Positions 10,295 to 28,955 are shown, numbered from the stretch's first letter. The stretch is DNA of 64,000 nucleotides from Sphingomonadaceae bacterium (GCA_002863155.1 PKED01000047.1:10674-74673); one strand, 5' to 3'. Made by a program: numbers and translations. Notes: generated by a model from the sequence alone, not told the origin.

Positions 10295-11461
10295 ATGCTG
10301 CGCGTGCTGACCCTGTCGACCCTGTTCCCCGACGTGACGCGCCCCAATTTCGGCGTGTTCGTCGAACGTCAGACGCTGGGTCTCGCCGGACTGCCCGAGG
10401 TCGATTTGCGGGTGGTCGCGCCGATCGGCATGCCGCCTTGGCCCTTGTCGCGCCATGCCCATTATGCTGGCTTTGCCCATGTGCCCGAACGCGAGCAGTG
10501 GCGCGGGCTCGACCTGTATCGGCCGCGCTTTGCGACTCTACCCGGCACGGGTGGGCGGCTGCACGTCGCGGCATTGACCCGGCGGCTCGTGCCGCTGCTG
10601 ACCGCGCTGCGCCGGGACTTCGCGTTCGACGTGATCGATGCCGAATTCTTCTTTCCCGACGGTCCAGCCGCGGTCGCGCTCGGCCGGCGCTTCGGGGTGC
10701 CGGTGTCGATCAAGGCGCGCGGGGCCGATATCCATCTTTGGGGTCATGGTGCGACGCGCGGCCAGGTGCGCCGCGCCGGACAGGCGGCCGATGGAATGCT
10801 CGCGGTGTCGGCGGCGATGAAGGCGGACATGGTCGCGCTGGGCGTGCCGGGTGAGCGGATCATGGTGCATCGCACCGGTGTCGATGCCGCGCGCTTTGGC
10901 GGGGTCGACCCGGTCGAGGCCAAGGCGGCGCTCGGCATGACAGGGTCGATCGTGGTGTCGCTCGGCGCGCTGGTGGCGCGCAAGGGGCATGACATCGTCA
11001 TCGATGCCGCCGCTATGCTGCCGGGGGTGACGCTGCTGATCGTCGGGGAGGGGCCCGAGCGCCCCCGGCTGGAGGCCCAGATCGCCGCGCGTGGGCTGGG
11101 CGACCGGGTGCGCCTGATGGGCGCCGTCGCGCATGAAGCGATCGGGCGGCTGCTCTCGGCCGCCGATGTGATGGCGCTCGCCTCGGCTTCCGAAGGGCTT
11201 GCCAATGCTTGGGTCGAGGCGCTGGCGTGCGGTGTACCGATCGTCATTCCCGATATCGGCGGCGCGCGCGAAGTGCTGACCGACCCGGCCTTCGGGCTGA
11301 TAGCGGATCGCCATGCGGCCGGGTTCGCCGAGGCGATCGGCGTGCTCCTCACCGCGCCGCCGCCACCCGAGCGTGTGAAGCAGGGCGCGGCACGCTTCAG
11401 CTGGGAGACAAATGCAGCCGCGTTGAAGGCGCATCTGGGCGCGCTGGTAGCGGGAGGTTAG
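10295..11461 (+). CDS. Glycosyltransferase family 4 (GT-B)
   Basis: DAEFFFPDG, RKGHD, SEGLANAWVEALACGVP donor-binding motif. Its stop codon TAG is the first triplet of a 140-bp repeat. Confidence 0.9.
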   Translation: MLRVLTLSTLFPDVTRPNFGVFVERQTLGLAGLPEVDLRVVAPIGMPPWPLSRHAHYAGFAHVPEREQWRGLDLYRPRFATLPGTGGRLHVAALTRRLVPLLTALRRDFAFDVIDAEFFFPDGPAAVALGRRFGVPVSIKARGADIHLWGHGATRGQVRRAGQAADGMLAVSAAMKADMVALGVPGERIMVHRTGVDAARFGGVDPVEAKAALGMTGSIVVSLGALVARKGHDIVIDAAAMLPGVTLLIVGEGPERPRLEAQIAARGLGDRVRLMGAVAHEAIGRLLSAADVMALASASEGLANAWVEALACGVPIVIPDIGGAREVLTDPAFGLIADRHAAGFAEAIGVLLTAPPPPERVKQGAARFSWETNAAALKAHLGALVAGG

Positions 11462-11598
11462 AGTCGGATGACTTTTGGTTGAATCAAATCCCCAACCGTT
11501 CGTGTCGAGCGAAGTCGAGACACCCTGCGCAACGCTCGTGGCCCGTTTCTCGACCGCGCTCGAAACGAACGAGTTAAGGTAATGTCATCGGGCTCTAG
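11459..11598 (+). repeat. 140-bp composite intergenic element, copy 1
   Basis: TAGAGTCGGATGAC...GTCATCGGGCTCTAG imperfect terminal inverted repeats; GANTC at 11461 and 11481; nested palindrome 11496-11572; near-identical to 18160-18299 and 28816-28955. Confidence 0.95.
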
Positions 11599-11626
11599 CG
11601 CACACCAGCCTTGGCTTGCATGCCCA

Positions 11627-11647
11627 ACTTCGCTCGAAATCAACGGG
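11627..11647 (+). repeat. Degenerate isolated right arm of the nested palindrome family
   Basis: ACTTCGCTCGAAATCAACGGG versus ACTTCGCTCGAAACGAACGG in the intact copy at 18391-18410. Confidence 0.6.
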
Positions 11648-11676
11648 CGGGGAGAATGGTCAGAGCGGCGATCCGG

Positions 11677-12621
11677 TCAATGCGCCGCCGCCGCCTTCCG
11701 CTTCGGCACCAAATGCAGTACACCGACGATCACCGCGCCGACGATGATCCCGACCAGCGCCGATCCGATTGCCCCCATCAGCCATTCGACGACGGCGCCA
11801 CCCACCGGCACCGCATGGCCGACCCGCACGCCGAGATCGTGGATGACGTGCGCGGGCGCGGCGACGCCGAACACCTCGAGCGCGTGGACGACGATCCCGC
11901 CGCCGACCCACAGCATCGCCGCCGTGCCGATCACCGACAGCGCTTCGAGCAGCATCGGCATGGTCTTCACCAGCCCGCGCCCGATCGCGCGGGTCGTGGT
12001 CGCGCGGCGCCGGGCGAGGTTCAGCCCGATATCGTCCATCTTCACGATCACCGCGACGACGCCGTACACTCCCGCCGTAATCGCGACCGCGACCGCGAAC
12101 AGCGCCAGTGCCTGGGTCAGCAGCGGCTTGCCCTCGATCGTGCCGAGCGCGATCGCCATGATCTCGCCCGACAGGATGAAATCGGTCCGGATCGCGCCGC
12201 TGACCTGGCGCTTTTCGAGCTCCTGCGGATCGGTGATCGTATCGGTGCCCGTTTCATGCTCACCGCCGATGAGCGCATGGAGGATCTTCTCGCTTGCCTC
12301 GAAACAAAGATAGGCGCCGCCGACGAGCAGCAGCGGCGTTATCGCCCAGGGCGCGAACGCGCTCAACGCAATCGCGGCGGGGAGCAGGAAGAGCAGCTTG
12401 TTGCGCAGCGATCCGATCGCGATCTTGCCGATGATCGGCAATTCACGGTCGGGCGTCAGGCCGATCACGTAATTGGGCGTGACGGCGGTGTCGTCGATCA
12501 CCACGCCCGCCGCCTTGGTCGCCGCCTTAGCCGAAGCACCCGCGACATCGTCGAGCGACGCCGCCGCCATCTTCGCGATCGCAGCGATATCGTCGAGCAG
12601 TGCTACCAGTCCGCCGGGCAT
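11677..12621 (-). CDS. DUF808 (YedI-like) inner-membrane protein
   Basis: MPGGLVALLDDIAAIAK, AAGVVIDDTAVTP, GAIRTDFILSGEIM, VKMDDIGL. Confidence 0.88.
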   Translation of the reverse strand: MPGGLVALLDDIAAIAKMAAASLDDVAGASAKAATKAAGVVIDDTAVTPNYVIGLTPDRELPIIGKIAIGSLRNKLLFLLPAAIALSAFAPWAITPLLLVGGAYLCFEASEKILHALIGGEHETGTDTITDPQELEKRQVSGAIRTDFILSGEIMAIALGTIEGKPLLTQALALFAVAVAITAGVYGVVAVIVKMDDIGLNLARRRATTTRAIGRGLVKTMPMLLEALSVIGTAAMLWVGGGIVVHALEVFGVAAPAHVIHDLGVRVGHAVPVGGAVVEWLMGAIGSALVGIIVGAVIVGVLHLVPKRKAAAAH

Positions 12622-12674
12622 GTCGTTCCCCTGTCCATGTCCGCGATCAGCCTTGTGGCGATCGGCGCGCCGGA

Positions 12675-14537
12675 TCAAGCCGCAATCTGCTCGAGCGCCT
12701 CGCTGGCTTCCAGCCACGCCGCCTCCGCCGCCGCAAGCTGATCGGCGATGTCGGCGCGGCGCTTCATCAGCTCGCTCATCGTCAGTTTCGCAAGCGCCGG
12801 CGCAGCCTTGGCGGGATCGAACATGGCAAGGTCGACCGCGCTCTGTTCCTGGGTCAGCTTCATCACGCGCGCTTCGGCGTCGCTCGCTGCCTTGCGCACG
12901 GCGGCCATCCGGTCGCGTTCCGCGGCAGCGGCTTTCTTGTCCTTTTTCTTGAAGCTCTCGGCGGCGCCCTTGGGCTGGTTCCGGCCCAGGATGAGGTCGG
13001 TATAATCGTCGAGACTGCCGGCGTAGTCCTTGGCCGTCCCGCCATCGACCAGCACCAGCCGGTCGGCGGTCAGCTCGATCATGTGGCGGTCGTGGCTCAC
13101 CACCACCACCGCACCGTTATAGTCGTTCAGTGCCTGCACCAGCGCCTCGCGCGCGTCGACGTCCAAATGGTTGGTCGGCTCGTCGAGGATCAGCATGTGC
13201 GGCGCGTCGCGGGTGATGAGCGCGAGCGCAAGCCGCGCCTTCTCGCCGCCAGAAAGCGAGCCGACCTTGGTGGTCGCCTTCATCCCCGAGAAACCGAACC
13301 TGCCGAGCTGGGCACGCACCGCCGCGGGCGATTTTCCCTCCATCGCCCGGGTCATGTGTTCGAGCGGGGTATCGGCGCCGTCGAGCTCCTCGACCTGGTA
13401 CTGGGTGAAATAGCCGACGCGCATCTTGCCCGATTTCGACACGTCGCCGTCCATCGCCGGCAGCTGCGCGGCGAGCAGGCGGGCAAGCGTGGTCTTGCCA
13501 TTGCCGTTGCGGCCCAGGAGCGCGAGCCGGTCATCGGGGTCGAGCCGCAGGTTCAGCCGCTGGAGCACCGGCTTCTCGGCATAGCCGACCGCCGCCATGT
13601 CGAGCGTGACTAGCGGCGGGCGCAGCGGATCGGGCGACGGGAAGTCGAAGCTGAGCGTCGGATCCTCGGCCATCGCCGCGATCGGCTGCATCTTCGCGAG
13701 CATCTTCAGCCGCGACTGCGCTTGCTTCGCGGTCGAAGCGCGGGCCGAATTGCGCGCGACATAATCCTGCAGCTTCGCGCGCTGCGCTTCCTGGTTGGCG
13801 CGCGCGGCGGCGAGTTGGGCGATGCGTTCGGCGCGCTGGCGCTCGAAATCGTCATAGCCGCCGGGATAGAGAAAAATCTTGCCGCCTTCGAGGTGGAGGA
13901 TGTTGTCGACGACATTGTTGAGCAGGTCGCGTTCATGGCTGATCACGACCATCATCGCCGGATAGCTTTTGAGGAAATTTTCGAGCCACAGCGACGCTTC
14001 GAGATCGAGGTGGTTCGACGGTTCGTCGAGCAGCAGCAGATCGGGTTCGGAGAACAGCAGTGCGGCGAGTGCCACGCGCATCTTCCACCCGCCCGAATAG
14101 CTGTCGAGCGGGCGTGCCTGCATCTCGTCGTCGAAGCCGAGACCCACGAGGATTTTCGCCGCGCGCGCCTCGGCGGTATAGGCGTCGATCGCCTCAAGCC
14201 GTTCGTAGAGTTCGGCGATGCGGTCGGGATCGTGGCAATGCTCCGCCTCCGCCAGCAGCGCGGCGCGCTCGGTATCGGCGGCGAGCACGGTCTCGAGCGG
14301 GCTCGCGGTGCCGTGGGGCGCTTCCTGTTGCAGATAGCCGATACGTGTCTTGCGCGGCATTTCGATCTCGCCCTCGTCGGGGTCGATTGCGCCGATCATG
14401 ACCTTCATCAGCGTCGACTTGCCCGCGCCGTTGCGCCCGATCAGCCCGACGCGGCTGCGCGCAGGCAGCGCCGCCGTCGCGCGGTCAAGGATCGTCCGCC
14501 CGCCAAGGCGCACCGTGATGCCGTTCAGATTGAGCAT
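12675..14537 (-). CDS. ABC-F family ATP-binding protein (YheS/Uup-like)
   Basis: Two ATPase cassettes (GRNGAGKST...SGGW...LDEPSNHLD; GRNGNGKTT...LSGGE...LDEPTNHLD), no TM segments; start MLNLNGITVRLGG. Confidence 0.93.
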   Translation of the reverse strand: MLNLNGITVRLGGRTILDRATAALPARSRVGLIGRNGAGKSTLMKVMIGAIDPDEGEIEMPRKTRIGYLQQEAPHGTASPLETVLAADTERAALLAEAEHCHDPDRIAELYERLEAIDAYTAEARAAKILVGLGFDDEMQARPLDSYSGGWKMRVALAALLFSEPDLLLLDEPSNHLDLEASLWLENFLKSYPAMMVVISHERDLLNNVVDNILHLEGGKIFLYPGGYDDFERQRAERIAQLAAARANQEAQRAKLQDYVARNSARASTAKQAQSRLKMLAKMQPIAAMAEDPTLSFDFPSPDPLRPPLVTLDMAAVGYAEKPVLQRLNLRLDPDDRLALLGRNGNGKTTLARLLAAQLPAMDGDVSKSGKMRVGYFTQYQVEELDGADTPLEHMTRAMEGKSPAAVRAQLGRFGFSGMKATTKVGSLSGGEKARLALALITRDAPHMLILDEPTNHLDVDAREALVQALNDYNGAVVVVSHDRHMIELTADRLVLVDGGTAKDYAGSLDDYTDLILGRNQPKGAAESFKKKDKKAAAAERDRMAAVRKAASDAEARVMKLTQEQSAVDLAMFDPAKAAPALAKLTMSELMKRRADIADQLAAAEAAWLEASEALEQIAA

Positions 14538-14587
14538 GCGGGGGCCGCTACCACGGGTTGGCGGCGGGCGGTAGGGGGCCTTGACCG

Positions 14588-15304
14588 CTATTCGCGCAGC
14601 GCGGCGATCAGCCTTTCTTCGAACCCGCGAATGTCGCCTTGTCCTTCGCGCAGGGCGGCGTTCGTCAGCTTCAGCCCGATCTCGCCGCCACGCAGCACGA
14701 TCGCTTCGTCGCAATAGCCGCAGACCGTGGTCAGTTCGTGAAGCGCGGTGACCAGCGTCGTGCCCGACCGGACGATGTCGGCAAGCGCGGCGCGCGTGTC
14801 GAAGGCGGCAACAGGGTCGAGCCAGTTGAACGGCTCGTCGAGGATGACGATCGGCGTCGCGCGCGCAAACGCCAGCGCGACTGCGGCGCGCTGGCGCATG
14901 CCCGACGAACAGGTACCGACTTTGCGATCGAGCAACGCGGGCAGACCAAGTGCTGCCCAAAGGCGGGGATTGCGGCGCTGCTGGGCGGCGCAGTCATCGC
15001 CTGCAAGCGCGAGCAGTTGACCGATGCGCAGGCTCGCGGGCAGTCGCTCGATGGGCGGAGCGAAGCCGATGCGGGCGGCTCGCCCGGCGCGGTCGCTTGC
15101 CAGCGCGACGCCGTCGATCGTGCAGTGCCCGGCCGCGATCGGCAGGCGGCCGGCCAGCGCGCGCAGCAGCGTCGTCTTGCCCGATCCGTTGGCGCCGATC
15201 ACGCCGAACCAGGCGCCGGCGGTGATCGAGATCGCCAGCTCGCGGATGACGGGCGCACCGCCGCGATCGACGCGGAGGCGCTGGGTCGCGATGGCGAGGG
15301 TCAT
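14588..15304 (-). CDS. ABC transporter ATP-binding protein
   Basis: Walker A GANGSGKT, signature CSSGMRQR, Walker B ILDEPF, H-loop ALHE. Confidence 0.88.
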   Translation of the reverse strand: MTLAIATQRLRVDRGGAPVIRELAISITAGAWFGVIGANGSGKTTLLRALAGRLPIAAGHCTIDGVALASDRAGRAARIGFAPPIERLPASLRIGQLLALAGDDCAAQQRRNPRLWAALGLPALLDRKVGTCSSGMRQRAAVALAFARATPIVILDEPFNWLDPVAAFDTRAALADIVRSGTTLVTALHELTTVCGYCDEAIVLRGGEIGLKLTNAALREGQGDIRGFEERLIAALRE

Positions 15305-16332
15305 GCGATCAGCCAGCGCTTGGGTGCCGCGCCACGCGCCAGCCGGACCAGCCCGACCAGCAGCACGACCGGCGCGAGCGGCGGGAATAGCGCGAGGGCG
15401 AGCGCTGCCACCGCGAGCAATATGCCGATGAACCAGTCACCCGCGCGCCGCCCGAACAGGCGATAGGCGAGCACCCGCAGCGCAATCAGCAGCGGCACCG
15501 CGCCTGCCGCCAGCATCCCGGCAATGAGCGCGATCCGGTCGGCACCGACTGCCAGCGCGCCTGCCAGCGGACCAAGGAAGGCCAGCGGTCTTGCGATACG
15601 ATCGCCGATGATCGCGCGCGACGTGCGACCGATCATCGTCAGATAGCCGACCAGTTCGGCATCGACCGGCCCAAGCGCCGTGCCTGCCGCGAAGGCGACA
15701 AGCGCCGCCAGCGCGGCGGCGACGGTACCCGTAACCGGCAGCATTGTCAGCGCGACCCCGGTCGCGGCCCCAAGCACGACCGTCAGCCACAAACGGGTGC
15801 GGCTAGACCGGCCAACGTTCGGCAGGATATGGCCACGCATCGCTTGCCGGGGCGCCATCGCCAGACGGAACCGGCCCGCCGCAGCAGCGCTCACGGCGCC
15901 GACGGCAAAGCCGATGAGATACCGGTCGGGCGCAAACACGCCCAGGATCGCCAGTCCCGAAAGGCCGATCGCCAGCGCCGTGCCGAGAATCACGATCGCC
16001 AGCCGCGCCTGGGGGCGCCAGTGCTGCGCGGGCGCGGCCAGAATGCCGTCGGTCGCGTGATAGGCGAGGCGGCCAAGGGCCTGGGTCGCCGCCATGAAAC
16101 CGATCGCGGCGCCGATGCCCGCCGCCAGCCAGCGATGCTGCGCGGGCGACAGAGGCACCGCCCAATCGCGCGTGATCAGCGCAAGCAGCGGGATGCCGAT
16201 CAACAGCGTCACGAAATCGGATCGGTTGCGCCCAAGCGCGCGCAACGCCGCGCGGACGATCGCGGCGTCATGGGTGAGCGGTCCGGCGTGCGATGCCGTA
16301 GTCCTGCCGCCCTGCCTGTCCGTGCGCCCCAT
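15301..16332 (-). CDS. Hypothetical multi-pass membrane protein, probable permease for the adjacent ABC ATPase
   Basis: Many hydrophobic segments; stop overlaps the ATPase start (15301-15304); start codon uncertain. Confidence 0.65.
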   Translation of the reverse strand: MGRTDRQGGRTTASHAGPLTHDAAIVRAALRALGRNRSDFVTLLIGIPLLALITRDWAVPLSPAQHRWLAAGIGAAIGFMAATQALGRLAYHATDGILAAPAQHWRPQARLAIVILGTALAIGLSGLAILGVFAPDRYLIGFAVGAVSAAAAGRFRLAMAPRQAMRGHILPNVGRSSRTRLWLTVVLGAATGVALTMLPVTGTVAAALAALVAFAAGTALGPVDAELVGYLTMIGRTSRAIIGDRIARPLAFLGPLAGALAVGADRIALIAGMLAAGAVPLLIALRVLAYRLFGRRAGDWFIGILLAVAALALALFPPLAPVVLLVGLVRLARGAAPKRWLIA

Positions 16333-16486
16333 GCCGGTGATATTGGCGGGGGGACCGGCTTTTTGCACGGAAAAACCATGGAGCAAGCGACAGGGTGGCG
16401 CCGTGCCCAAGTCCCATCGCCTTGGCCGGCCATTGCATCCCCCGTTGCTCCGGCGCACTTTCGCTCGCAACTAGGGCGAGGCAAGG

Positions 16487-17395: not shown

Positions 17396-18162
17396 CACCG
17401 CTTCAGGGACAAGTCGCGCTGATCTCCGGCGCGGCGAAGGGGATTGGCCTCGCGACCGCGACCCGGCTCGCGCGCGACGGCGCGGATATCGTCGCGCTCG
17501 ACCTGGCGGGAAGCGACACGACCGCGCTGGCGGCAGCCGTGGCGGACGCCGGACGCGGGCTCGAGGTGGTCGAGGGCGATGTCAGCACGCCCGAAGGCTG
17601 GGCGGCGGCGGTCGAAGCGGCGGTGGCGCGGTTCGGCGGCATCGATATCCTCGTCAACAATGCCGGGATTTCGGGGCCGTTCGCGCCGATCGAACGCTAT
17701 CCGATCGAGGATTTCGACCGGGTGATGGCCGTCAATGCGCGGGGCAGCTGGCTCGGCATCCGCGCGTGCATTCCCGAGCTGCGCAAGCGCAAGGGGCGGG
17801 TGATCAACATCTCGTCGACCGCCGGGCTGGGCGGTCCAGCGGCGATCAGCGGCTATACGATGAGCAAGCACGCGGTGATCGGCCTCACCAAGATGGCGGC
17901 GATGGGGCTCGCCGCCGACGGCATCCGCGTCAATGCGGTGTGCCCGTCGCCGACCGACACCGACATGATGCGCGGCCTTGAGGCGGGTCGCAGCGACGAC
18001 GAGGCCCGGATGATCCGCGCACGGTTCGAGGCTGACTGCCCGCTCGGCCGTTATGCAGAACCCGAAGAGATCGCCGCGTCGATCGCGTTCCTGGCCGGGC
18101 CCGATTCGTCGTTCGTGACGGGCGCGATCCTGTCGGTCGATGGCGGGGTGAAGGCGCGTTAG
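17389..18162 (+). CDS. Classical short-chain dehydrogenase/reductase
   Basis: SGAAKGIG Rossmann motif, NNAG, YTMSK catalytic motif, IRVNAVCP; start overlaps the VOC stop. Confidence 0.93.
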   Translation: MVTPLQGQVALISGAAKGIGLATATRLARDGADIVALDLAGSDTTALAAAVADAGRGLEVVEGDVSTPEGWAAAVEAAVARFGGIDILVNNAGISGPFAPIERYPIEDFDRVMAVNARGSWLGIRACIPELRKRKGRVINISSTAGLGGPAAISGYTMSKHAVIGLTKMAAMGLAADGIRVNAVCPSPTDTDMMRGLEAGRSDDEARMIRARFEADCPLGRYAEPEEIAASIAFLAGPDSSFVTGAILSVDGGVKAR

Positions 18163-18299
18163 AGTCGGATGACTTGTGGTTGAATCAAATCCGCAACCGT
18201 TCGTGTCGAGCGAAGTCGAGACACCCTGCGCAACGCTCGTGGCCTGTTTCTCGACTGCGCTCGAAACGAACGGGTCAAGGTAATGTCATCGGGCCCTAG
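18160..18299 (+). repeat. 140-bp composite intergenic element, copy 2
   Basis: Same termini (TAGAGTCGGATGAC...GTCATCGGGCCCTAG) and nested palindrome; its first TAG is the SDR stop codon. Confidence 0.95.
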
Positions 18300-18332
18300 G
18301 CGCGATGGGCTTTGGATCGAACCACGGTCCAT

Positions 18333-18410
18333 CCGTTAGTTTCGAGCGTAGTCGAGAAACGATTTTCGACCGCCTGTGGCCTGTTTCTCGACTTCGCTCG
18401 AAACGAACGG
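18333..18410. repeat. Stand-alone REP-like palindrome (78 bp)
   Basis: CCGTTAGTTTCGAGCGTAGTCGAGAAAC...GTTTCTCGACTTCGCTCGAAACGAACGG; 28-bp arms. Confidence 0.9.
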
Positions 18411-18431
18411 GTGGGGGGGCGTGAGCGCACT

Positions 18432-21400
18432 CTACGCCGCGAGCAAACTCGTCGCGCCGCCCAGATCGACCGACACGAGCCGGCTGACGCCCTGTTCGAT
18501 CATCGTCACGCCGAACAGGCGGTGCATGCGGCTCATCGTCACTGCGTTGTGGGTGACGATCAGATAGCGGGTCGCGGTCTCGCGGGTCATCGCGTCGAGC
18601 AGGTCGCAGAAGCGCTCGATATTCGCGTCGTCGAGTGGCGCATCGACTTCGTCGAGCACGCAGATCGGCGCGGGGTTGGTGAGGAACAGCCCGAAGATGA
18701 GCGCGACCGCGGTCAGCGCCTGTTCGCCGCCCGACAACAACGTCAGCGATTGCAGCTTCTTGCCCGGCGGCTGGGCCATGATCTCCAGCCCCGCCTCGAG
18801 CGGATCGTCCGAATCGACGAGCGCGAGATGGGCGCTGCCGCCGTTGAACAGCGTCGTGAACAGCCGCCGGAAATGCCCGTCGACCGCCTCGAACGCCGCG
18901 AGCAGGCGCTGGCGGCCTTCGCGGTTGAGCGTGCCGATCGAGCCGCGCAGGCGGTTGACGGCCTGCCCCAGTTCGTCGCGCTCCGCTGCGTTCCGGGTGC
19001 GGGACTGTTCGATCTCGGCGAGTTCGGTGTCGGCGACGAGATTGACCCCGCCCAGCCGCTCGCGTTCCAGCGTGAGCCGTTCGTGGCGGGCGGATTCGTC
19101 GGCGGGCCCGCGCACTTCGTCGGTGCCGAAGCCGACCCGTTCGGGCAGCAGCACCGGCGGGCATTCGAAGCGCTCGCCCGACACGCGGCCCATTTCGATC
19201 CGCCGCGCTTCCTGCGCTTCGGCGCGCGCGGCGGCCCCGGCGCGGTGCTCGCGCGCTTGGGCGAGGCGTTCGGCGGCTTCGGCGGTGGCATGTTCGGCGC
19301 TCCGCAATGCCGCTTCGGCGTCGCGTTCGGCAGTCTGCGCGCGGTCGGCGGCGGCACGCGCGTCGGCATGCTCGGTCGCGATCTCGGCAATGCGGCGGTC
19401 GAGGATCGCGGGGCGCGCGGCCAGCACCGCCGCTTCCTCGGCGAGCGTATCTGCACGTTTCGCCATGTCGGCGATCCGGCGTGCGGCATCGCCCGACCGC
19501 GCGCGCCAGCTTTTGGCTTCGGCCTGGCCCTGCGCCAACCGGTCGCGATCGGCGGCGAGCTCACGGTCCAGCGACGATCGGCGCGCGCGGGCATCGGCGG
19601 TGGCGGCGCGCGCGGCCTCGGCCTCGCGGCTCAGCGTCGCGACGCGGTTGCGGGTGGCGCTGCCGTCCGGGAGCGCGGCGATCGTCGCCTCGGCGCGCGC
19701 GACATCGGCCTGCGCTTCGTCGACTTCGGCTTCGGTGCGGCGCTGGCGCTCACCCAAATCAGCGCGCCGGGCGTCGACGCGTTCGATCGCGGCGGCGGCG
19801 CGATCCTCGATCCGGGCGGCGTCGCGCGCGCGGGCATCGGCGGCATCGAGCAGGCGGCGCGCATCGGCGGCGGCGCGCCGGGCCTCTGCAATCGTGTCGT
19901 CGATCCGCGCGAGTTCAGCGTCGGCGGCCTCGACCGCGCGGACGGCGGGAGCGCGTGCCTTTTCGAGCGCCCGCAGCCGGTTCATCCGTTCGAGCCGCTG
20001 GGCGGCGGCCGCCCCGCCTGATCGCGCGACGAATCCGTCCCAACGGCGTAGCGTACCCGCAGGCGTCACCAGCCGCTGCCCGACCGCAAGCGGCTGGCCG
20101 TCGTCGCTTTCGGCGACGAATATCTGCGCCAGCCGCCGCGCGAGCGCGGGCGGCGCCTTCACATGCGCGGCAAGCGGTGTTGACCCGTAAGGTGCGGCGG
20201 GGTCGCCGGGCAGCGGTTGCGCGCCCGCCCAATGGCGCTCGCCCGCCGGGTCGAGCCCGGCTTCGAGATCGTCGCCAAGTGCTGAGGCAAGCGCGCGTTC
20301 AAACCCAAGATCGGGCTGGAGCGCGTCGAGGATGCGGTCGTTGCCGCTGGTGCGTGTCGCCTTAGCAAGCGCTGAGGCTTCGCTGTCGATCGCGGCCAAG
20401 TCGGCGTGGGCGGCGGCGCGCGCGGACTGTGCGGCGTCGCGTACGTCGCGCGCGGCACTTTCGGTGCCGTCGGCGCGCGCCAGGCTCGCGCGCGCCTGTT
20501 CGGCATGCGTCTGGGCCTGTACGCGGTCGGCGGCGGCCTGGTCTCGCTGAGCGATCAGCGGAGCGGTGTCGCCGAGCGCGCGCGCTTCGGCGGCGATCCG
20601 CGCGGCGTCGCGTTGCGCCCGATCGAGCCTCGCCCGGGCAGCGGCGAGCGCGGCCTGGGCCACGCGCGCGTCGGCGGCTTCGCTCGCCTGTTCGGCCAGT
20701 GCCTGAGCGAGCGCCACCTCGGCGTCGCGCGCGTGCCGTTCGGCTTCGGACACGGCGGCGTCGAGCGCGGGCAGACGGGCGGCCGATTCGGCAAGCCGCG
20801 CCTCGATCGTCTTGGCCTCCTCCGCCAGGCGCGCGATCGCGGCGGCGGCATCCTCGGCCAGCGCCCCCTCGCGTTCGCGATCGGCGACCAGCCGCGCCTG
20901 GGCGTCCGCCAGTTCGGCGATGCGACGCGCGGTCGACTCGCGCTCGGCCTTCAGGCTGGCCAGCTGATGCCCCGCCTCGCTTGCCCGGTCGCGCGCGGCG
21001 AGTGCCGTCGCGCGCACGGTGGCGAGCGCTTCGGTCGCGGCATGGCTGTGCGCGGCGGTGGCGCGCTGCTCCTCGGCAGCTTCGGCAACGCGCGCCTCGG
21101 CGGCCGCTGCCTCGGCCTTGGCGGCATCAGCGGCGGCGGCGGCATCGCGCCAGCGCGCGAAGATCATCCGTGCCTCGGCAGTGCGAATCAGGTCGGAGAG
21201 CGTGCGATAGCGTTCGGCCTGCTTGGCCTGGCGACGCAAGGCGGCGGCGCGCGTGTCCTGGTCGGCAATCACCTCGTCGAGCTTGGCCAGATTGGCTTCG
21301 GTCGCGCGCAGCCGTTGTTCGGCATCCTTGCGGCGGACGTGGAGCCCGGCGATCCCGGCGGCTTCCTCCAGCATCGCGCGGCGCTCGGCAGGCCGTGCGT

Positions 21401-22579: not shown

Positions 22580-22601
22580 CGGGGAAAACTCCTGGACAAT
22601 A

Positions 22602-23324
22602 TCATTTGGCGCCCTGGGCGCGGATGATCGGTTCGAGCGACGGCCAGTCATGGACTTTGACGTCGCGCCCGCCGACGTAAAAACTGGGCGTATACTGGAT
22701 GATCCTGCTCGCCGCCTCACCCGTTTTCAGGATCGGGTTGACGATCTGCGGGTCGGCGAAGCACGCCTTGATCTGCGCGTCGTTCAGGCCCTGGCTCTTG
22801 GCGATGTCGTTGAGGCCGATCGATTGCGCGGTGATGCGGACCTGTTCGATCGGCTTTTCGCTTTCGAAACGGCGCAGCTCGCGATTGAGGAAATTGAAGC
22901 CCAGCCCGACCCATTCTTCCTGCCGCGCAAAGATCGCCTCGGCGGTCGCGACATAGCGTGCCGGGCCGGCGCAGCGCGCGATGATCGACGCGGCGAGGTC
23001 GAGCGGGTTCGACGTCAGCGCCCGAAATTCGAGGCTGGTCGAGCCGGAGCGGATCATCTGCGCCTTGAGCGTTGGCGCCGATTCCTTCGAAAAAGCGGCG
23101 CAATGCGGGCAGGTGAAGCTCAGATATTCGACAATCTTTACCTTGGCCGCAGGATTGCCGACCATGATCGTGCCGCTCGGTGTGACGCGCGCCACCTTGC
23201 TCCAGTCGGCAGGTGCTGCCGCGGCGACCGCGCGCTTCGTCTGCGCCCGCTTGATCGGGGGCACCCCGGCCATGGCCAGACCGCCAAGCAGCGCGACCGT
23301 CAGCACCGCAACCATCGCCCTCAC
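22602..23324 (-). CDS. DsbA-like thioredoxin-fold protein (CPHC)
   Basis: Signal peptide, GNPAAKVKIVEYLSFTCPHC, YTPSF. Confidence 0.85.
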   Translation of the reverse strand: MRAMVAVLTVALLGGLAMAGVPPIKRAQTKRAVAAAAPADWSKVARVTPSGTIMVGNPAAKVKIVEYLSFTCPHCAAFSKESAPTLKAQMIRSGSTSLEFRALTSNPLDLAASIIARCAGPARYVATAEAIFARQEEWVGLGFNFLNRELRRFESEKPIEQVRITAQSIGLNDIAKSQGLNDAQIKACFADPQIVNPILKTGEAASRIIQYTPSFYVGGRDVKVHDWPSLEPIIRAQGAK

Positions 23325-23887
23325 GAACCTTCCTCCACATCCTTTGCCGGGCCGATCACCGGCGTGCCGCGTGTCGCGGCGACGCCTGCCGCCAGAGCCG
23401 CCAGCACGGCCTTCAATTCGGGGTCGACGATCGCGCGCAGGCTGTCGCCAAGCTCGACCGGCACCGGTTTGATCGAGGGCGGGGCCGGGCGCGGCGCAGG
23501 CGAGGCGACGTCGCCCTGGCGCATCACGATCCTTGCGACCGCGGGATAGCCGAAGAAGCGGTTCACTCGCTCGACGATTTCAGGGGCGATGTGCTGCATC
23601 ATCGTGCCGTGAGCGCCCCGCACGACCAGATGCAGCGTGCCCTCCTGGCGGCTGCCGCGCGGAAAGCGAATCGATTCGGGAGCGGAGACGGCGGCGAAGC
23701 GCGGGCCGACGATTTCGGGCCAGCGGCCGACGATCGAGCTTTGCACGAAGCCGAATTTCTTGAAAGCGACGCCGCTCACTGCCGGCAACAGGTCGCTCAG
23801 CGCGCGCGCGGGGCCGCCGCGGGCCGCATCCGCTTGCTTCGGTTTCGGCTCGGGAGGGTGGACGCCTTTGCTCACAGCATCGTCCAT
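23321..23887 (-). CDS. DUF721 / DciA-like protein
   Basis: KFGFVQSSIVGRWPEIVG, PESIRFPRG, IVERVNRFFGY; canonical position divergent from mutY. Confidence 0.85.
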   Translation of the reverse strand: MDDAVSKGVHPPEPKPKQADAARGGPARALSDLLPAVSGVAFKKFGFVQSSIVGRWPEIVGPRFAAVSAPESIRFPRGSRQEGTLHLVVRGAHGTMMQHIAPEIVERVNRFFGYPAVARIVMRQGDVASPAPRPAPPSIKPVPVELGDSLRAIVDPELKAVLAALAAGVAATRGTPVIGPAKDVEEGS

Positions 23888-23901
23888 GCCATAGCCGCCC
23901 G

Positions 23902-24954
23902 GTGGACGCCAAGCTTCGATGTGACCCGGCGCTGATCGCGCCTGCGCTGCTCGACTGGTACGACGTCCACGCCCGCGACCTGCCCTGGCGGGTGCGTCCG
24001 GGCAAGTCGGCGGACCCGTACCGCGTCTGGCTTTCCGAAGTGATGCTCCAGCAGACAACGGTTGCGACGGTGCGGCCGCGCTATGCCGAATTTGTCGCGC
24101 GTTGGCCCGACGTGGCGGCGCTGGCGGCGGCCGATGATGCCGATCTGATGGCGGCCTGGGCCGGGCTTGGCTATTATGCCCGCGCGCGCAATCTGCTTGC
24201 CTGTGCGCGAGCGGTGATGGCCGATCATGGCGGCCGCTTTCCGGGCGACGAAGCCACGCTGCGGACGCTGCCGGGGGTTGGCGACTATACCGCCGCCGCC
24301 ATTGCCGCGATTGCCTTTGACCGCCGGGCGGTGGTGGTCGACGGCAATGTCGAGCGCGTCGTCACGCGGCTGTTCGCGCTTGCCGAGCCGCTGCCGGGTG
24401 CAAGGCCGATGGTGCGCGCGCTCGCCGACAGCATCACGCCGGAGCATCGCGCCGGGGACTTTGCGCAGGCGATGATGGATCTGGGCGCCGGGCTGTGCAG
24501 CCCGCGCCAGCCGGCCTGTTCGCTTTGTCCGCTAAACACCATGTGCGCCGCGCATGCCCAGGGCAGTCCGGACGGCTATCCGGTGAAGGCCGCGAAAAGG
24601 GCCCGGCCGCAGCGATTCGGCACCGCCTATTGGATCGAGCGCGACGGCGCGGTGCTGCTGGTCCGCCGTCCGCCAAAGGGGCTGCTCGGCGGTATGCGCG
24701 CCCTGCCGACAGGGCCCTGGGCCGATACACCGCCGGGCCTGACCGACGCGCCGGTGCCCGATGCCGACTGGGCAATGATCGACGGCACGGCGAGCCACGC
24801 GTTCACGCATTTCCGGCTGGAACTGGTGCTTGCGGTTGCGCGCGGCGACGGGCAATCAGGCGGCCTGCAAGGCGAATGGTGGCCGATTGCCGATCTTGAG
24901 TCGGCTGGCCTTCCGACCGTGTTCGCCAAGGTCGCGCGTTTGAGGAGAGCATGA
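23902..24954 (+). CDS. mutY: A/G-specific adenine glycosylase
   Basis: LLDWYD, PYRVWLSEVMLQQT, GLGYYARARNL, LPGVGDYTA HhH, VDGNV, Fe-S cluster Cys motif. Confidence 0.96.
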   Translation: MDAKLRCDPALIAPALLDWYDVHARDLPWRVRPGKSADPYRVWLSEVMLQQTTVATVRPRYAEFVARWPDVAALAAADDADLMAAWAGLGYYARARNLLACARAVMADHGGRFPGDEATLRTLPGVGDYTAAAIAAIAFDRRAVVVDGNVERVVTRLFALAEPLPGARPMVRALADSITPEHRAGDFAQAMMDLGAGLCSPRQPACSLCPLNTMCAAHAQGSPDGYPVKAAKRARPQRFGTAYWIERDGAVLLVRRPPKGLLGGMRALPTGPWADTPPGLTDAPVPDADWAMIDGTASHAFTHFRLELVLAVARGDGQSGGLQGEWWPIADLESAGLPTVFAKVARLRRA

Positions 24955-26297
24955 TGGCGAAGTTTCGGGCAATGACGGTGGTGGCGCTGGCGGCGCTGGC
25001 CGGGACGGCGGCGCTGGCCGGGACGGCGGCGCTGGCCGGTCAAGCGCAGCAACAGGCTTCGCATCAGGGCCACCAGCAAATGGAGGCCGGTTCGGTCGCG
25101 CTGCCCAAGGTCAGCGCGCTTGTCGAAAGCTATCCGGCGACGCGCAAGGCGCCGGGCATTGTCGCGGTCGTCGGCGTCGGCCATTCTTCGGTGGCCCGGC
25201 AGGCCGGCGCGCTGGCTTTCGACGCGGGAGCGCCGAAGGCCGATGGCAATTCGCTGTGGCGCGTCTATTCGATGACCAAGCCGATCACCGCGATGGCAGC
25301 GATGATCCTGATCGAGGAAGGCAAGCTGAAGCTCGACGACCCGATCAGCAAGTTCATCCCGGCGTTCAAGAACATGACCGTGCTGGTCGACGGCACCAAG
25401 GACCTGACCGCCGTCCCGGCCAAGACCCAGATCACCGTGCGCCATCTGATGACGCATACGGCGGGGCTGGGATACACGATCGTCACCAAGGGGCCGTTGC
25501 TCAAGGCCTATGAAGACGCCGGGATCACGCCGTTCACCTCGACCACGCAGGCGGAGAAGGAACTGCGCAAGGTTCGCCCGGCCACGCTCCAGGCCTTTGC
25601 CGAAAAGGTCGCGACGCTGCCGCTGATCGCCGAGCCCGGCACCAAATGGAGCTATTCGATCGGTCTCGACGTGCTCGGCGCGGTGATCGAGAAGGCCGGG
25701 GGGATGCCGTTCGATACTTTCCTCCAGACGCGAATCTTCGACCCGCTCAAGATGCGCTCGACCTATTTCACGGTGCCTGCCGCCGATGCGGCACGGCTGG
25801 CGACCGGCTATGCCTTTGTCGGCGAGAATGCGCTGCCGCTCGATGCCGGTGCGACGTCGGTGTTCCTCCAGCCGCCGAGCTTTCCCTATGGCGGCGCCGG
25901 GCTGGTGACCTCGGCGAACGATTACGACCGTTTCCTCCACATGCTCCAGAATGGTGGTGAGCTTGACGGTGCCCGCATCCTGAAGCCCGAGACGGTCGCG
26001 CTGGCGATGTCGAACCTGCTGCCGGCGGGCGTTCTTTATCCGGGCGCCGTGCCCAACACCGGCGGCGCACCGGGGCCGTCCCAGGGTTTCGGCGCCGGAG
26101 GATCGGTCTATCTGGTTGACCTCCCCGGGGGGCCGGGCAAAGGCACGTACGGCTGGGGCGGGGCGGCGGGCACGATCGCCTGGGTCGATCCCAAGAACAA
26201 GCTGCGCGCAACCGTGATGGTCAATTACCTGCCCGGCGACCGCTGGCCGCTGCGGACCGATTTCACCAAGGCGCTCTACGCCGATCTCCTGCGCTGA
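24951..26297 (+). CDS. Exported serine hydrolase, beta-lactamase-like family
   Basis: SMTK (SxxK), LMTHTAG, WSYS, GWGGAAG; signal peptide. Confidence 0.88.
   Translation: MMAKFRAMTVVALAALAGTAALAGTAALAGQAQQQASHQGHQQMEAGSVALPKVSALVESYPATRKAPGIVAVVGVGHSSVARQAGALAFDAGAPKADGNSLWRVYSMTKPITAMAAMILIEEGKLKLDDPISKFIPAFKNMTVLVDGTKDLTAVPAKTQITVRHLMTHTAGLGYTIVTKGPLLKAYEDAGITPFTSTTQAEKELRKVRPATLQAFAEKVATLPLIAEPGTKWSYSIGLDVLGAVIEKAGGMPFDTFLQTRIFDPLKMRSTYFTVPAADAARLATGYAFVGENALPLDAGATSVFLQPPSFPYGGAGLVTSANDYDRFLHMLQNGGELDGARILKPETVALAMSNLLPAGVLYPGAVPNTGGAPGPSQGFGAGGSVYLVDLPGGPGKGTYGWGGAAGTIAWVDPKNKLRATVMVNYLPGDRWPLRTDFTKALYADLLR
24990..25040 (+). repeat. In-frame 18-bp tandem repeat in a signal peptide
   Basis: GCGGCGCTGGCCGGGACG twice plus a partial third copy; encodes AALAGT-AALAGT-AALAG. 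Confidence 0.85.
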
Positions 26298-26304
26298 TCG
26301 ACCG

Positions 26305-27174
26305 ATGTTGACGCCGGGCTTCACGGGGGGGCGGCTCGACCGTGCCGATCAGCTTCGGCACGATGCCGCCGCGATCGAGCGGCTGCGAAGCGACTGGCGC
26401 GCGAGGCTGCTGACGCTTGTCAATTTCGAGCCCGAGGTGACGGCGGAAGGCATGCTGGCCTGGGGCTCGCTTGCCGACGCGCCGGATGATGCCGAACTGG
26501 TGCTGCTCGGGCTCGACGATGGCGGGCGGCCGCACTTCGCCGCCTATGTGCCGGGCATGCGCGCGCCGCCGGGCCGGTCGCTGCGGCTGTTCGGGATGCT
26601 CGATCAGTTCGCGCCAGGCGAGGCGGCGACTTATGCGGCGGCGCGCAGCGTGCTCGACTGGCACAGCCGCCACGGCTTCTGCGCCAATTGCGGGGTGGCG
26701 ACCGCGATGATCCGTGCTGGCTGGGCGCGCAAATGCGGCGGCTGCGGCGCCGAGCATTTTCCGCGGGTCGACCCGGTCGTCATCATGCTGGTCGAACATG
26801 AAGGCCGCGCGCTGCTCGGGCGCGGCAAGGGATGGCCCGAGGGGCGCTATTCGGCGCTGGCCGGATTCGTCGAGCCGGGCGAATCGATCGAGGAAGCGGT
26901 GGCGCGCGAGGTGTTTGAGGAGGCCGGAGTGCGGGCGGTGTCGGTCCGCTATGTTGCCAGCCAGCCCTGGCCATTTCCGTCGTCGCTGATGATGGCGTGC
27001 GTGGCGGTGGCCGAGGATGATGCGCTCAACATCGACCCGAACGAGCTCGAAGATGCGATCTGGGTTGCGCGCGAGGATGTCCGGGCCGTCATGGCGGGGG
27101 CGCCGGGGCCGTTCCTGCCCGCGCCGCCCTATGCGATCGCCCACACCCTGCTGACCGAATGGTCCCGCGACTAG
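26305..27174 (+). CDS. nudC: NAD(+)/NADH diphosphatase NudC
   Basis: Zn-ribbon FCANCG...CGGCG, FPRVDPVVI, Nudix box GESIEEAVAREVFEEAG, SQPWPFPSSLM. Confidence 0.95.
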   Translation: MLTPGFTGGRLDRADQLRHDAAAIERLRSDWRARLLTLVNFEPEVTAEGMLAWGSLADAPDDAELVLLGLDDGGRPHFAAYVPGMRAPPGRSLRLFGMLDQFAPGEAATYAAARSVLDWHSRHGFCANCGVATAMIRAGWARKCGGCGAEHFPRVDPVVIMLVEHEGRALLGRGKGWPEGRYSALAGFVEPGESIEEAVAREVFEEAGVRAVSVRYVASQPWPFPSSLMMACVAVAEDDALNIDPNELEDAIWVAREDVRAVMAGAPGPFLPAPPYAIAHTLLTEWSRD

Positions 27175-28058
27175 CGTTCGCGCGCCATCGGATAGGTGCC
27201 GAGCAGGCGGACCCACTCGCAGTGGAAGGCGAGCTCGCCGAGCGCGCGGTCGACCGCAGGGTCGCCGGGCCGACCGATGAAATCGGCGTAGAATTCGGTC
27301 GCGGTGAAGCTCGCGCCGCGCTGATAGCTTTCGAGCTTGGTCATGTTGACGCCCGCCGTCGCGAACCCGCCCAGCGCCTTGTACAGCGCCGCCGGTGCGT
27401 TCGGCAGCGCGAAGATGAGTGTCGTCACGAATGGCCCGTCGCCGTCCAGCGGCACCGCCTGCTGCGCCAGCACGACGAACCGGGTCATGTTGTGCGCTTC
27501 GTCGGCGATGTCCTCGACGAGCAGCTTCAGGCCATAGGTTTCGGCGGCGATCGCGGGGGCAAGCGCGGCAAGCGCTGTGTCGCCGCGCTCCGCCACCAGC
27601 GCGGCGGCGCCTGCGGTATCGGGATAGGTCACAGGCGAGATCCCGGCCGCGCGCAACCACTGGCGGCACTGGCCCAGTGCCTGCGGGTGGCTGATCGCCT
27701 CGCGCACCTGGTCGCGCGTGCCGAGCCCCATCATCGCGTAGCGGATCGGCAGGAAAAATTCGCCGATGATTGCCAGCCCCGATTCGGGCAGCAGGAAATG
27801 GATGTCTGCGACCCGGCCATGGAGTGAATTCTCGATCGGGATGATCGCCAGTTCGGCGGCGCCCGACTGAACCGCCTCGATCGCGTCGTCGAAGTCAAAG
27901 CATGGCAAAGGCAGGCCGCCGGGCACCGCCTGGAGCGCGGCGATGTGCGAATTGGCGCCCGGTGCACCCTGAAACGCCACGGCGCGCGCGGGGTCGGCAG
28001 CGGCGGCGCGGGTCATCTCGGCGACGATCGGCTGGGCGGGGGCGGGAAAGCGTTCCAT
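27171..28058 (-). CDS. pheA: Prephenate dehydratase
   Basis: AFQGAPGANS, IPIENSLHG, SHPQALGQC, NMTRF, NMTKLES ACT domain. Confidence 0.93.
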   Translation of the reverse strand: MERFPAPAQPIVAEMTRAAAADPARAVAFQGAPGANSHIAALQAVPGGLPLPCFDFDDAIEAVQSGAAELAIIPIENSLHGRVADIHFLLPESGLAIIGEFFLPIRYAMMGLGTRDQVREAISHPQALGQCRQWLRAAGISPVTYPDTAGAAALVAERGDTALAALAPAIAAETYGLKLLVEDIADEAHNMTRFVVLAQQAVPLDGDGPFVTTLIFALPNAPAALYKALGGFATAGVNMTKLESYQRGASFTATEFYADFIGRPGDPAVDRALGELAFHCEWVRLLGTYPMARER

Positions 28059-28166
28059 GTCGGCGCGCGCTTATCGGCCCTTTGCAGGCGCGGCAAGCGT
28101 GGCTTGCGATTGGGGGCGTGCATATCTAAAGGACACCCACTTTCGCGATCAGAGGCATTTCACGAC

Positions 28167-28802
28167 ATGAGCTTTCGGACGAACATCATTGTAGGCTGGA
28201 TCCTGGCGGCGATCTTCGTCGGGCTCGGTCTCGCGCTGGTCGTCGGGCATCATTTCCGCAGCGAACGCCCGGAAAAAATGGGTTATCCGATCGAGGGTGT
28301 GGTCGAAGCGTCGGCCGAAGGCGGCGCGGCTGCCGCGCCCGATGTGCCGATCGCGACCCTGCTCGCCTCTGCCGATGTCGCCAAGGGCATGGAAACCTTC
28401 AAGAAGTGCGGGTCGTGCCATAATGCCGATCAGGGTGGTGCCAACGGCATCGGCCCCAATCTCTGGGGCGTCGTCGGCGCCGGGATCGCGGCGAAGCCGG
28501 GCTTTGCCTATTCGGACGTGTTGAAGGGCATGACGTCGGGCAAGTGGACGTTCGAAGAGCTCGACAAGTGGCTCAAGAACCCTCGCAGCTATGCCAGTGG
28601 CACCAAGATGAGCTTTGCCGGCCTGACCAACGGCCAGGACCGGGCGAACGTGATCGCCTATCTGAACGGCCAGGGTTCGAACCTGCCGCTTCCCGCAGCA
28701 CCCGCCGCCGAAGCCGGAGCGCCCGCGGGCGATGCCGCCGCAGCACCTGCCGAAGGCGATGCCGCCGCGCCTGCGGAAGGCAATGCGACGGCAGCGGAAT
28801 AA
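28167..28802 (+). CDS. Membrane-anchored cytochrome c (class I, cytochrome cM/cy-like)
   Basis: N-terminal TM helix, CGSCH, GPNL, GTKMSFAG axial Met, Ala/Pro/Glu-rich tail. Confidence 0.92.
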   Translation: MSFRTNIIVGWILAAIFVGLGLALVVGHHFRSERPEKMGYPIEGVVEASAEGGAAAAPDVPIATLLASADVAKGMETFKKCGSCHNADQGGANGIGPNLWGVVGAGIAAKPGFAYSDVLKGMTSGKWTFEELDKWLKNPRSYASGTKMSFAGLTNGQDRANVIAYLNGQGSNLPLPAAPAAEAGAPAGDAAAAPAEGDAAAPAEGNATAAE

Positions 28803-28815
28803 TTCCGGCCTGTTT

Positions 28816-28955
28816 TAGAGTCGGATGACTTTTGGTTGAATCAAATCCCCAACCGTTCGTGTCGAGCGAAGTCGAGACACCATGCGCGACGCTCGTGGCC
28901 TGTTTCTCGACTGCGCTCGAAACGAACGGGTCAAGGTAATGTCATCGGGCTCTAG
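28816..28955 (+). repeat. 140-bp composite intergenic element, copy 3
   Basis: TAGAGTCGGATGAC...GTCATCGGGCTCTAG with nested palindrome. Confidence 0.95.

Follow-up and report, generated by a model that had tools for sequence, protein, structure and literature searches.

A probable IS630-family miniature element enclosing a REP doublet at gene ends in a Sphingomonas draft genome

The locus and its repeats

The window analysed here is the whole 64,000-nucleotide stretch PKED01000047.1:10674-74673, which is C2:10674-74673 of a draft assembly of a Sphingomonadaceae bacterium (GCA_002863155.1; 3.29 Mb in 228 contigs, 65.6% G+C, 99.9% complete). Relatives with names assign the organism to Sphingomonas as defined by GTDB. 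The window contains three copies of a 140-bp element, which we assign with high confidence to the non-autonomous MITEs (miniature transposable elements with inverted repeats) of the IS630 family of insertion sequences (ISs), and whose interior is a doublet of repetitive extragenic palindromic (REP) units. Each copy lies between convergent genes with Pfam support: a glycosyltransferase gene (+) and a DUF808 gene (-) for copy 1, the latter starting 78 nt downstream of the copy; a short-chain dehydrogenase (SDR) gene (+) and an SMC gene (-) for copy 2; and a cytochrome c gene (+) and a LOG gene (-) for copy 3. An earlier note on this DNA had claimed three same-orientation copies of exactly 140 bp between convergent genes, and this holds at all three sites: the copies lie on one strand and align without gaps, and their flanks are unrelated from the first outside base. 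The copies, the ends of copy 1 and an adjoining older relative are as follows (position in the window, strand, description).

11459..11598, + strand, MITE copy 1, 140 bp; the glycosyltransferase gene 10295-11461 has its stop in the left TAG of the copy
11459..11485, + strand, left terminal inverted repeat of copy 1, ~27 nt, TAGAGTCGGATGACTTTTGGTTGAATC; homologous to the left ends of IS630-family ISs
11572..11598, + strand, right terminal inverted repeat of copy 1, GGTAATGTCATCGGGCTCTAG
18160..18299, + strand, MITE copy 2, 140 bp; the SDR gene 17266-18162 has its stop in the left TAG of the copy
18297..18434, + strand, older, diverged composite of 138 bp, reading TAGGCGCGATGGGCTTTGGATCGAACC... 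REP doublet ...GCGTGAGCGCACTCTA; it abuts copy 2 and shares its terminal TA
28816..28955, + strand, MITE copy 3, 140 bp; inserted between TTTTA and G

Copy number and boundaries of the element

A genome-wide BLASTN search with the element returned 43 matches that are 100 bp or longer and 91-100% identical, spread over both strands and many contigs, in addition to the free cores described below. Thirty-three copies are complete, 30 of them exactly 140 bp, and about ten more are cut by contig ends of the draft assembly. One copy is truncated at its 5' end and another is split by an unrelated IS (C33:246-331 with C97:10114-10188). The splitting IS, whose end reads TTGGTCTGAGCCCCGACGATCCTC...TTATGAGTAGAGC, interrupts the REP-doublet loop of that copy, and each half is found close to the start of the shared IS sequence. 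The element is thus short (<500 bp), non-coding and dispersed, in the size and copy-number range of bacterial MITEs.

The two ends, TAGAGTCGGATGAC... and ...GTCATCGGGCTCTA, pair at 19 of 27 positions. The terminal inverted repeats of the earlier note (TAGAGTCGGATGAC / GTCATCGGGC(T/C)CTAG) are present, with a homology of ~27 nt rather than the 14 bp it gave. A pattern built on this pair of repeats matched 37 times in the genome, compared to none for the reversed-pattern control. Overall, the element is built of a left IS end (~34 nt), two different REP units arranged head to head and a right IS end (~27 nt).

Complete copies share a mean pairwise identity of 93.8% and an identity of 96.6% to their consensus, and some pairs are one base apart. 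Within the composite, the core has diverged by 1.8% and the arms by 3.3% and 8.1%. As the core is the least diverged part and the copies form a young burst, the whole 140 bp has been copied as one unit. The recent spread suggested by the earlier note therefore stands for this species, with ~40 copies at the identity given above; it does not stand for the design of a shell filled with REP units, which is old in Sphingomonadaceae (see below).

Target sites and gene context

The element starts with TA-G and ends with C-TA, the next base being G or A, and TA is found on both sides in 30 of the 33 complete copies. The base 5' of the element is C in 25 copies and T in eight, never A or G. If the TA is taken as a duplication of 2 bp, the targets are inferred to be CTAG (18), TTAG (8) and CTAA (7), all of the form YTAR. 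The copy at C18:18939-19078 proves the TA duplication directly: it is nested in a free REP doublet, and deleting the copy together with one TA restores ...CCCCAATCCGTTAGTGTCGAGCGAAGTCGAG..., a doublet of normal type with the CGTTAG variant known from other doublets. Copy 2 of the window likewise used the terminal TA of the older composite at 18297-18434, so that its right TA (18297-18298) is common to both. The TA/CTAG target duplication proposed in the earlier note was therefore correct.

Among the 33 complete copies, 24 sit between convergent genes, six between tandem genes and one between divergent genes. In 19 copies (58%), one end of the element falls on the stop codon of a flanking open reading frame (ORF), and in three of these both ends do. 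These statistics come from crude gene calls (ORFs of at least 80 aa with high third-position G+C; 2,261 genes). By the same calls, YTAR sites outside the MITEs comprise 287 at stop codons versus 2,659 at other "non-coding" positions (~10%). The excess at stop codons is thus about six-fold, and a little smaller once uncalled genes are taken into account. The older composite also ends on a stop, its right CTA being that of the SMC gene (-) at 18432-21833.

The first base of the element proper is G and its last is C, so that TA and the terminal base together read TAG on both strands; a gene whose TAG or TAA stop receives the insertion therefore stays terminated. The pattern may reflect either a target preference or the survival of harmless insertions. 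Copy 3 is placed differently, 13 nt past the TAA stop of the cytochrome c gene and right after a small hairpin at 28795-28807. Its target is the TA of GCCTGTTTTAG, the T-tract that follows this hairpin (CGGAATAATTCCG) behind the gene (28795-28815), and the insertion may have split a terminator stem from the end of its own T-run.

The parent insertion sequence

The earlier note had also suggested a search for an enzyme gene flanked by the same ends, and such ends were found both in this genome and in its relatives. An end-motif search of the genome revealed that contig C84 opens with the last 121 nt of an IS, reading CTAGAGCCCGATGACATTAGGTTGAACC..., whose terminal 18-19 nt are identical to the right end of the MITE (~24/27 overall for the right terminal repeat of copy 1). 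The opposite strand encodes an IS630-type C-terminus (...RSHEATWRRVGSLLDAFTASKCSNYLRNSGYGST / ...WRRVGSLLDAFTASKCSNYLRNSGYGST, each followed by the stop), so that the closing codons of a transposase gene, together with its stop, survive in the right arm of the MITE.

Four genomes of the same genus (here and below Sphingomonas in the GTDB sense), namely G024 (the metagenome-assembled genome, MAG, Sphingomonas sp. D1_Bin_44), G149, G089 and G069, contain complete ISs of 1,046-1,051 bp that share these ends, and G112 has a more diverged relative. Their ends in G024, G149 and G089 read TAGAG(C/T)SSGATGAC on the left and GTCATC...(C/T)CTA on the right, and G069 and G112 have diverged versions of them. 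Around the G024 copy, TA is duplicated at TTAA. The parent-type ISs have two ORFs that overlap at TTCAAAAAAAAGC, an A8 slippery site. The fused transposase, joined by hand at this frameshift site, exceeds the cut-off of 100 on NF033545 ("IS630 family transposase") with 212 bits, and it matches the Pfam family DDE_3 (PF13358) with E = 3e-34.

In the assembly of the organism itself, a search for the full-length IS found only the last 121 nt, because contigs below 2.5 kb are absent from it; the G149 and G069 copies of the IS each stand alone on a contig of ~1,050 bp. The unitig with the IS end is ~1.5-3 times as deep as the flank on C84 in four metagenome runs holding the organism (~2-fold in two of them), and another flank, which is not in the assembly, is joined to it. 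Given this excess depth and the additional flank, we take the organism to carry at least two copies of the IS. Another candidate partner, a DDE_3 match at the end of contig C27 (C27:28705-28827), was rejected; it is a truncated remnant of a different IS630-type transposase (HQEFIRFLNAIEAEMPVDKAIHVILDNYATHKQPKVRAWLE) and no partner of the 140-bp MITE.

IS630 reportedly inserts at CTAG with the TA duplicated (Tenzen and Ohtsubo). The element shares with it the CTAG preference and the TA duplication, and the DDE_3 transposase of the parent ISs falls in the same NCBIfam equivalog; unlike IS630, the element is non-autonomous, and its parent ISs are 1,050 bp long with an A8 frameshift site and left ends that carry GANTC at positions 23 and ~57. 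The IS427-group elements of the IS5 family (such as IS711 in Brucella) also duplicate TA at YTAR, and the target consensus and 2-bp duplication alone would suit a MITE derived from them. Such an origin is nevertheless extremely unlikely: the terminal 18-19 nt are those of an IS with an IS630-type C-terminus, the complete relatives hold a DDE_3 / NF033545 IS630 transposase between the same ends, and the end-motif search of this genome saw no IS5-type partner with TAGAGYSSGATGAC ends. The assignment to IS630 is based on the match to these IS ends.

GANTC sites

As the earlier note reported, the left arm of the element has two GANTC sites, GAGTC at positions 3-7 and GAATC at 23-27; in copy 1 they lie at 11461-11465 and 11481-11485, both inside the left terminal inverted repeat. 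Among the 33 copies, the site at position 3 is kept in 25 and that at position 23 in 32, and a further one is sometimes found at position 133. The element has 13.9 GANTC sites per kb versus 1.51 in the genome, a 9-fold difference, and the genome itself has about half the mononucleotide expectation.

Chen and Shapiro (2003) are said to have described CcrM-associated intergenic repeats (CIR) in Caulobacter, and CcrM is common in the alphaproteobacteria, the class of the present host. The earlier note had likened the shell to CIR and stressed its methylation sites. On a CIR-like reading, the element would be no selfish transposon but a functional repeat of the host, selected to bring GANTC sites and a hairpin to the ends of genes. 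The host class, the 9-fold density and the fixed positions 3 and 23 would agree with such a role. By the descriptions of CIR in two reviews (PMC10969869, PMC3184786), the two kinds of repeat share a length of ~110-140 bp, an intergenic location, an inverted-repeat organization, GANTC sites and an alphaproteobacterial host. By the same descriptions they differ in that the GANTC sites of the element belong to a transposon end instead of the middle of an internal repeat, and are not conserved in sister elements, and in that the TA duplication and the IS partner are clear.

Comparison with the ISs and with sister elements accounts for the sites in another way. All five complete ISs (L060 in G024, L052 in G149, L061 in G089, L021 in G069 and L029 in G112) have GANTC at 23 and at 53-58 (CTGATTCAA); this pair lies upstream of the transposase ATG, and the other ~990 nt hold zero or one site. 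The sites of the MITE are thus inherited from the left end of the IS, within the transposase-binding end common to the parent family. Ten sister MITEs from other species have GANTC at 22-23 in only two cases, the others reading GAACC, GATCC or GACCC there, and three have no GANTC at all. In addition, the two sites are conserved no better than the neighbouring bases, and the TA duplication, the terminal repeats and the nested insertion indicate transposition. A CIR-like or CcrM-related role of the element is therefore not supported and seems very improbable, and nothing suggests that carrying methylation sites is its purpose. Dam methylation controls the transposition of IS10 and IS50, and one might speculate by analogy that the left-end sites of the IS couple transposase expression or end-binding to CcrM hemimethylation.

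The REP doublet core

The internal palindrome noted earlier occupies positions 39-113 of the element. It is of REP type and also occurs free, without the IS630 shell. The units of copy 1 and a free doublet in the window are as follows.

11497..11571, + strand, REP doublet core of copy 1; two units with a spacer of ~20 nt, each preceded by a CCGTTC tag
11502-11523, + strand, REP unit 1 of copy 1, GTGTC-GAGCGAAGTCGA-GACAC
11545-11566, - strand, REP unit 2 of copy 1, with the stem GTTTC/GAAAC
61447..61525, no strand given, free REP doublet with no IS630 shell; units at 61454-61475 (+) and 61497-61518 (-)

About 30-40 such free copies of the core are found in the genome at 72-87% identity, and tens of copies of free core doublets occur in 12 of 24 genomes of the same genus; the core and the 140-bp element had no match in 16 genomes from other genera of the same order. 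The unit, here called type A, consists of CCGTTC, a 5-nt stem, GAGCGNNGTCGA and the complement of the stem, and its 12-nt loop is conserved. Among 130 units of this genome with a perfectly complementary 5-bp stem, the pairs are GTGTC/GACAC (63), GTTTC/GAAAC (52) and GTCCC/GGGAC (15). Since the stem pairs covary, the small hairpin of each unit is kept by compensating changes, whereas the long arm-to-arm pairing is not. Free doublets usually mix their stems, GTGTC with GTCCC (10) or with GTTTC (6), and all 30 scorable composites combine GTGTC with GTTTC. Altogether, the core has the anatomy of a REP doublet of the bacterial interspersed mosaic element (BIME) or REPIN type.

The free doublets are ~80% alike, and more than half of the type-A units of the genome sit inside MITE copies. 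The free doublets are old, and the composite is a young burst in this genome.

A doublet of inverted REP units is the anatomy of REPINs (PMC3116915), and each unit here has a compensated 5-bp stem, as would be expected if a REP-associated tyrosine transposase (RAYT) moved the element in single-stranded form and the outer inverted repeats were incidental. This possibility is hardly credible here. A search for a Y1/RAYT gene (PF01797, Y1_Tnp) had no match in the 99.9%-complete genome, control genomes being scored by the same search, and none in 12 of 13 same-genus genomes that carry the REP. A RAYT/Y1 transposase was therefore rejected as the mobilizer, with none in the genome and no correlation across relatives. 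Moreover, the copies are bounded by IS630 ends and a TA duplication, which Y1 transposases do not make, and the whole 140 bp is conserved as one unit.

Two further families of small repeats were seen in the genome. A second REP family, tagged with CGTC, has 33 units (CGTCATTGCGAGCG..AGCAATCCA / CGTCATTGCGAGCG.AGCGAAGCAATCCA / CGTCATTGCGAGCG.AGCGAAGCAATCCAG), for instance at C2:6424-6500 (outside the window), on C18 after position 2024 and in the flanks of C112 and C26. In this genome none of them lies within a MITE copy, although in other species the shell is filled by this very family. A third small hairpin element (...GCCTGTCCTGAGCGGCTGGCTTGCCAGCCAGTCGAAGG...) sits inside the GAGC...GTCGA loop of REP units at C4:6093-6154, C80:7215-7271 and C80:839-898, and inside a MITE copy in two "Stakelama"/Sphingomonadales MAGs (L070, L081). 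Its presence within REP loops indicates that these repeats nest in each other's loops. Elsewhere in the window, a DUF559 (Vsr-like) gene (59527-60010, - strand) is bracketed by inverted hairpin repeats (CCCCTCCCTGGAAGGGAGGGG plus GGGGGTGGGTTGG), and these hairpins (CCCCTCCC...GGGAGGGG) bear no relation to the REP units.

The same shell in other genomes

We scanned 400 other genomes of the same genus with the shell pattern TAGAGNNNGATGAC-N95-125-GTCATNNNNCTCTA. One to four elements (2-8 strand-hits) were found in each of 19 genomes, and none with the reversed control. In every listed match the interior is a REP doublet, and three REP families are represented: type A, as in the present genome, in G102, G309 and G258; type B (CTGAGCTTGTCGAAGG) in G101, G212, G091, G279, G272, G152, G392, G389 and the C9 element of G002; and type C (CGTCATTGCGAGCG.AGCGAAGCAATCC) in G348, G259, G362, G216, G250, G049 and G121. 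The sister composites always have one arm of ~27 nt and another of 34-40 nt. The junction of the short arm with type A also occurs in Sphingobium xenophagum, in Sphingobium sp. AS12 and in "Stakelama" and Sphingomonadales MAGs, and one locus (L073) is identical to the 140-bp element over 60 nt. The exact junction of the left arm with the core had no match among 185,579 species representatives. The combination of shell and REP doublet is thus an old design, widespread in Sphingomonadaceae.

A metagenome scan for the same ends placed 20-50 nt apart returned 83 contigs with shell-only mini-MITEs of 48-73 bp, flanked as Y-TA...TA-R. These mini-MITEs (L088-L167) consist of two IS630-type ends of ~27 nt and a few joining bases, on contigs of 57-69% G+C, many of them from moss or peat samples, and one 60-bp family recurs across many contigs. 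Three of them (L135, L163 and L166; 59 bp) correspond to a composite of the G309 type minus its REP doublet, and L126 keeps half a REP unit. One shell lineage thus exists in both filled and empty forms. Their junction would fit the insertion of {TCCGTTCG...CGAACGGA} with a 2-bp TC repeat, and would equally fit the deletion of a palindrome between TC repeats.

These forms bear on another explanation, in which free REP doublets are the primary mobile unit that enters hairpin loops, the MITE is one target among others and the composite is a by-product. The three shell-only elements with the possible 2-bp TC repeat at the junction, the small hairpin element found inside REP unit loops, and the occurrence of three REP families at one central position of one shell all argue for it. 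Against it, palindrome deletion between short direct repeats gives the same pattern and L126 is a partial deletion of this kind, no REP-moving enzyme is known here, and the sequences compared come from different organisms. We regard it as possible though somewhat doubtful; it is also compatible with the best explanation of how the 140-bp unit now spreads, namely as an IS630-family MITE.

More tentatively still, the ~27-nt ends of one IS630 lineage may serve in Sphingomonadaceae as a general carrier for REP doublets of the alphaproteobacterial kind that lack a RAYT. Three REP families would then have reached the hairpin apex either because doublets enter hairpin loops or because a REP core favours MITE amplification.

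Fold and search for empty sites

The consensus is predicted to fold as one long hairpin in which the ends pair together and the REP arms pair, with free energies of -64.6 kcal/mol as RNA and -37.5 kcal/mol as DNA (z = -6.5 for both). A strong hairpin is thus carried to the 3' ends of genes, as the earlier note had it. A terminator scan found no convincing stem with a T-run in or after the element. By analogy with REPs and other MITEs (background in PMC3733652), it is plausible that the hairpin affects the 3'-end processing or stability of read-through transcripts.

The polymorphic empty sites that the earlier note hoped for did not appear. Eight metagenome runs held no joint skipping any of the three window copies, and in runs X14 and X16, which hold a strain ~96-97% identical, copy 1 is occupied too. 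A model of the empty site of copy 2 matched only the end of the downstream SMC gene in relatives, which are too distant and not syntenic. Near-identical sequence (window 28300-29500 and 11000-29400; runs X1-X20) places the organism in at least 20 metagenomes, from drinking water, freshwater, wastewater, biofilm and marine samples, and in one metatranscriptome.

Proposed mechanism

We propose that a parent IS of ~1,050 bp would produce its transposase from two ORFs joined at the A8 slippery site. The transposase would bind the ~27-nt terminal inverted repeats of the MITE in trans and excise the element, which would then integrate at the TA of a YTAR site with duplication of the TA. The REP doublet family is the older component, scattered through part of the genus and not dependent on a RAYT transposase. 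A doublet would have been inserted into, or retained in, the centre of a short shell-only MITE, and would now travel as its cargo, which would explain why more than half of the type-A units lie in MITE copies. In a genome of 65.6% G+C, the sparing of TAG and TAA stops described above, together with selection against other sites, would concentrate the copies on stop codons and between convergent genes.

Several points weigh against this model. The full-length IS is not in the assembly of the organism, where a working transposase is inferred; TA duplication at YTAR also fits some IS5-family elements of the IS427 group; the stop-codon and convergence statistics rest on crude gene calls; the eight metagenome runs gave no empty-site polymorphism, which leaves any current activity putative; and the entry of a REP doublet into the shell competes with the origin of shell-only forms by palindrome deletion, of which L126 shows that the partial kind occurs.

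Comparison with known elements

RUP and Nezha derive from IS630-type ISs. The element resembles them in being ~100-140 bp long and non-coding, with terminal inverted repeats that match an IS630-family IS, a TA duplication, tens of copies and a whole sequence that forms one long hairpin. It differs from both in that its interior is a REP doublet of the host genus, which also occurs free, rather than IS-derived filler, and in that it targets YTAR, with 58% of its copies on stops and ends that rebuild TAG. RUP (Streptococcus pneumoniae) and Nezha (cyanobacteria) are both listed as bacterial MITEs in PMC3733652. The Correia elements of Neisseria are also similar in their TA duplication, terminal inverted repeats of ~26 nt, length of 100-160 bp, location next to genes and hairpin transcripts; the sequences are unrelated, the REP cargo is found in the present element only, and the host clades differ.

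For the core, the closest known repeats are the CGTC-tagged REPs of alphaproteobacteria, Sphingomonads included, which occur mostly as head-to-head dimers and of which Di Nocera et al. (2013, PMC3733652) write that they "apparently lack a dedicated transposase". The same paper gives them a CGTC (or TGTC/CCTC) tag, an 8-9-bp stem starting with AT, a 4-5-nt loop and a CCA tail. The core shares with them the head-to-head dimer of short hairpins, the Sphingomonad host and the want of a dedicated tyrosine transposase, whereas in the type-A unit the tag is CCGTTC, the stem measures 5 bp and the loop 12 nt. The type-A unit looks like a relative of the CGTC-tagged REPs. Compared to free REPs, BIMEs and REPINs, the doublet of the element is enclosed by the ends of a DDE transposon.

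An Rfam scan of window positions 10000-30000 (E <= 1) found nothing, the papers searched included none about Sphingomonadaceae MITEs or about IS630 MITEs of Sphingomonas, and a plasmid collection gave matches to the core only, unannotated and on Sphingobium replicons. We thus found no description of a REP-filled IS630-type MITE, in line with the suggestion of the earlier note that the composite might be undescribed.

Implications

The element explains a repeat that breaks the assembly, as ~10 contig ends fall inside its copies, and it gives Sphingomonas and Sphingobium genomes a defined pair of MITE and IS630-family IS to annotate. It also illustrates a harmless mode of insertion in a GC-rich genome, in which the TA of a stop codon is targeted and TAG is rebuilt from the terminal G and C. 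Moreover, alphaproteobacterial REPs of the CGTC kind are not known to have a mobilizing enzyme (PMC3733652), and the riding of more than half of one REP family in the shell of a DDE transposon, a shell that holds three REP families across species, makes the choice between hitch-hiking and hairpin invasion testable. If the IS630 ends do act as a general carrier, a DDE transposase would be a main multiplication route for these "orphan" REPs. For dozens of genes, the hairpins placed right after stop codons may alter the stability of mRNA 3' ends.

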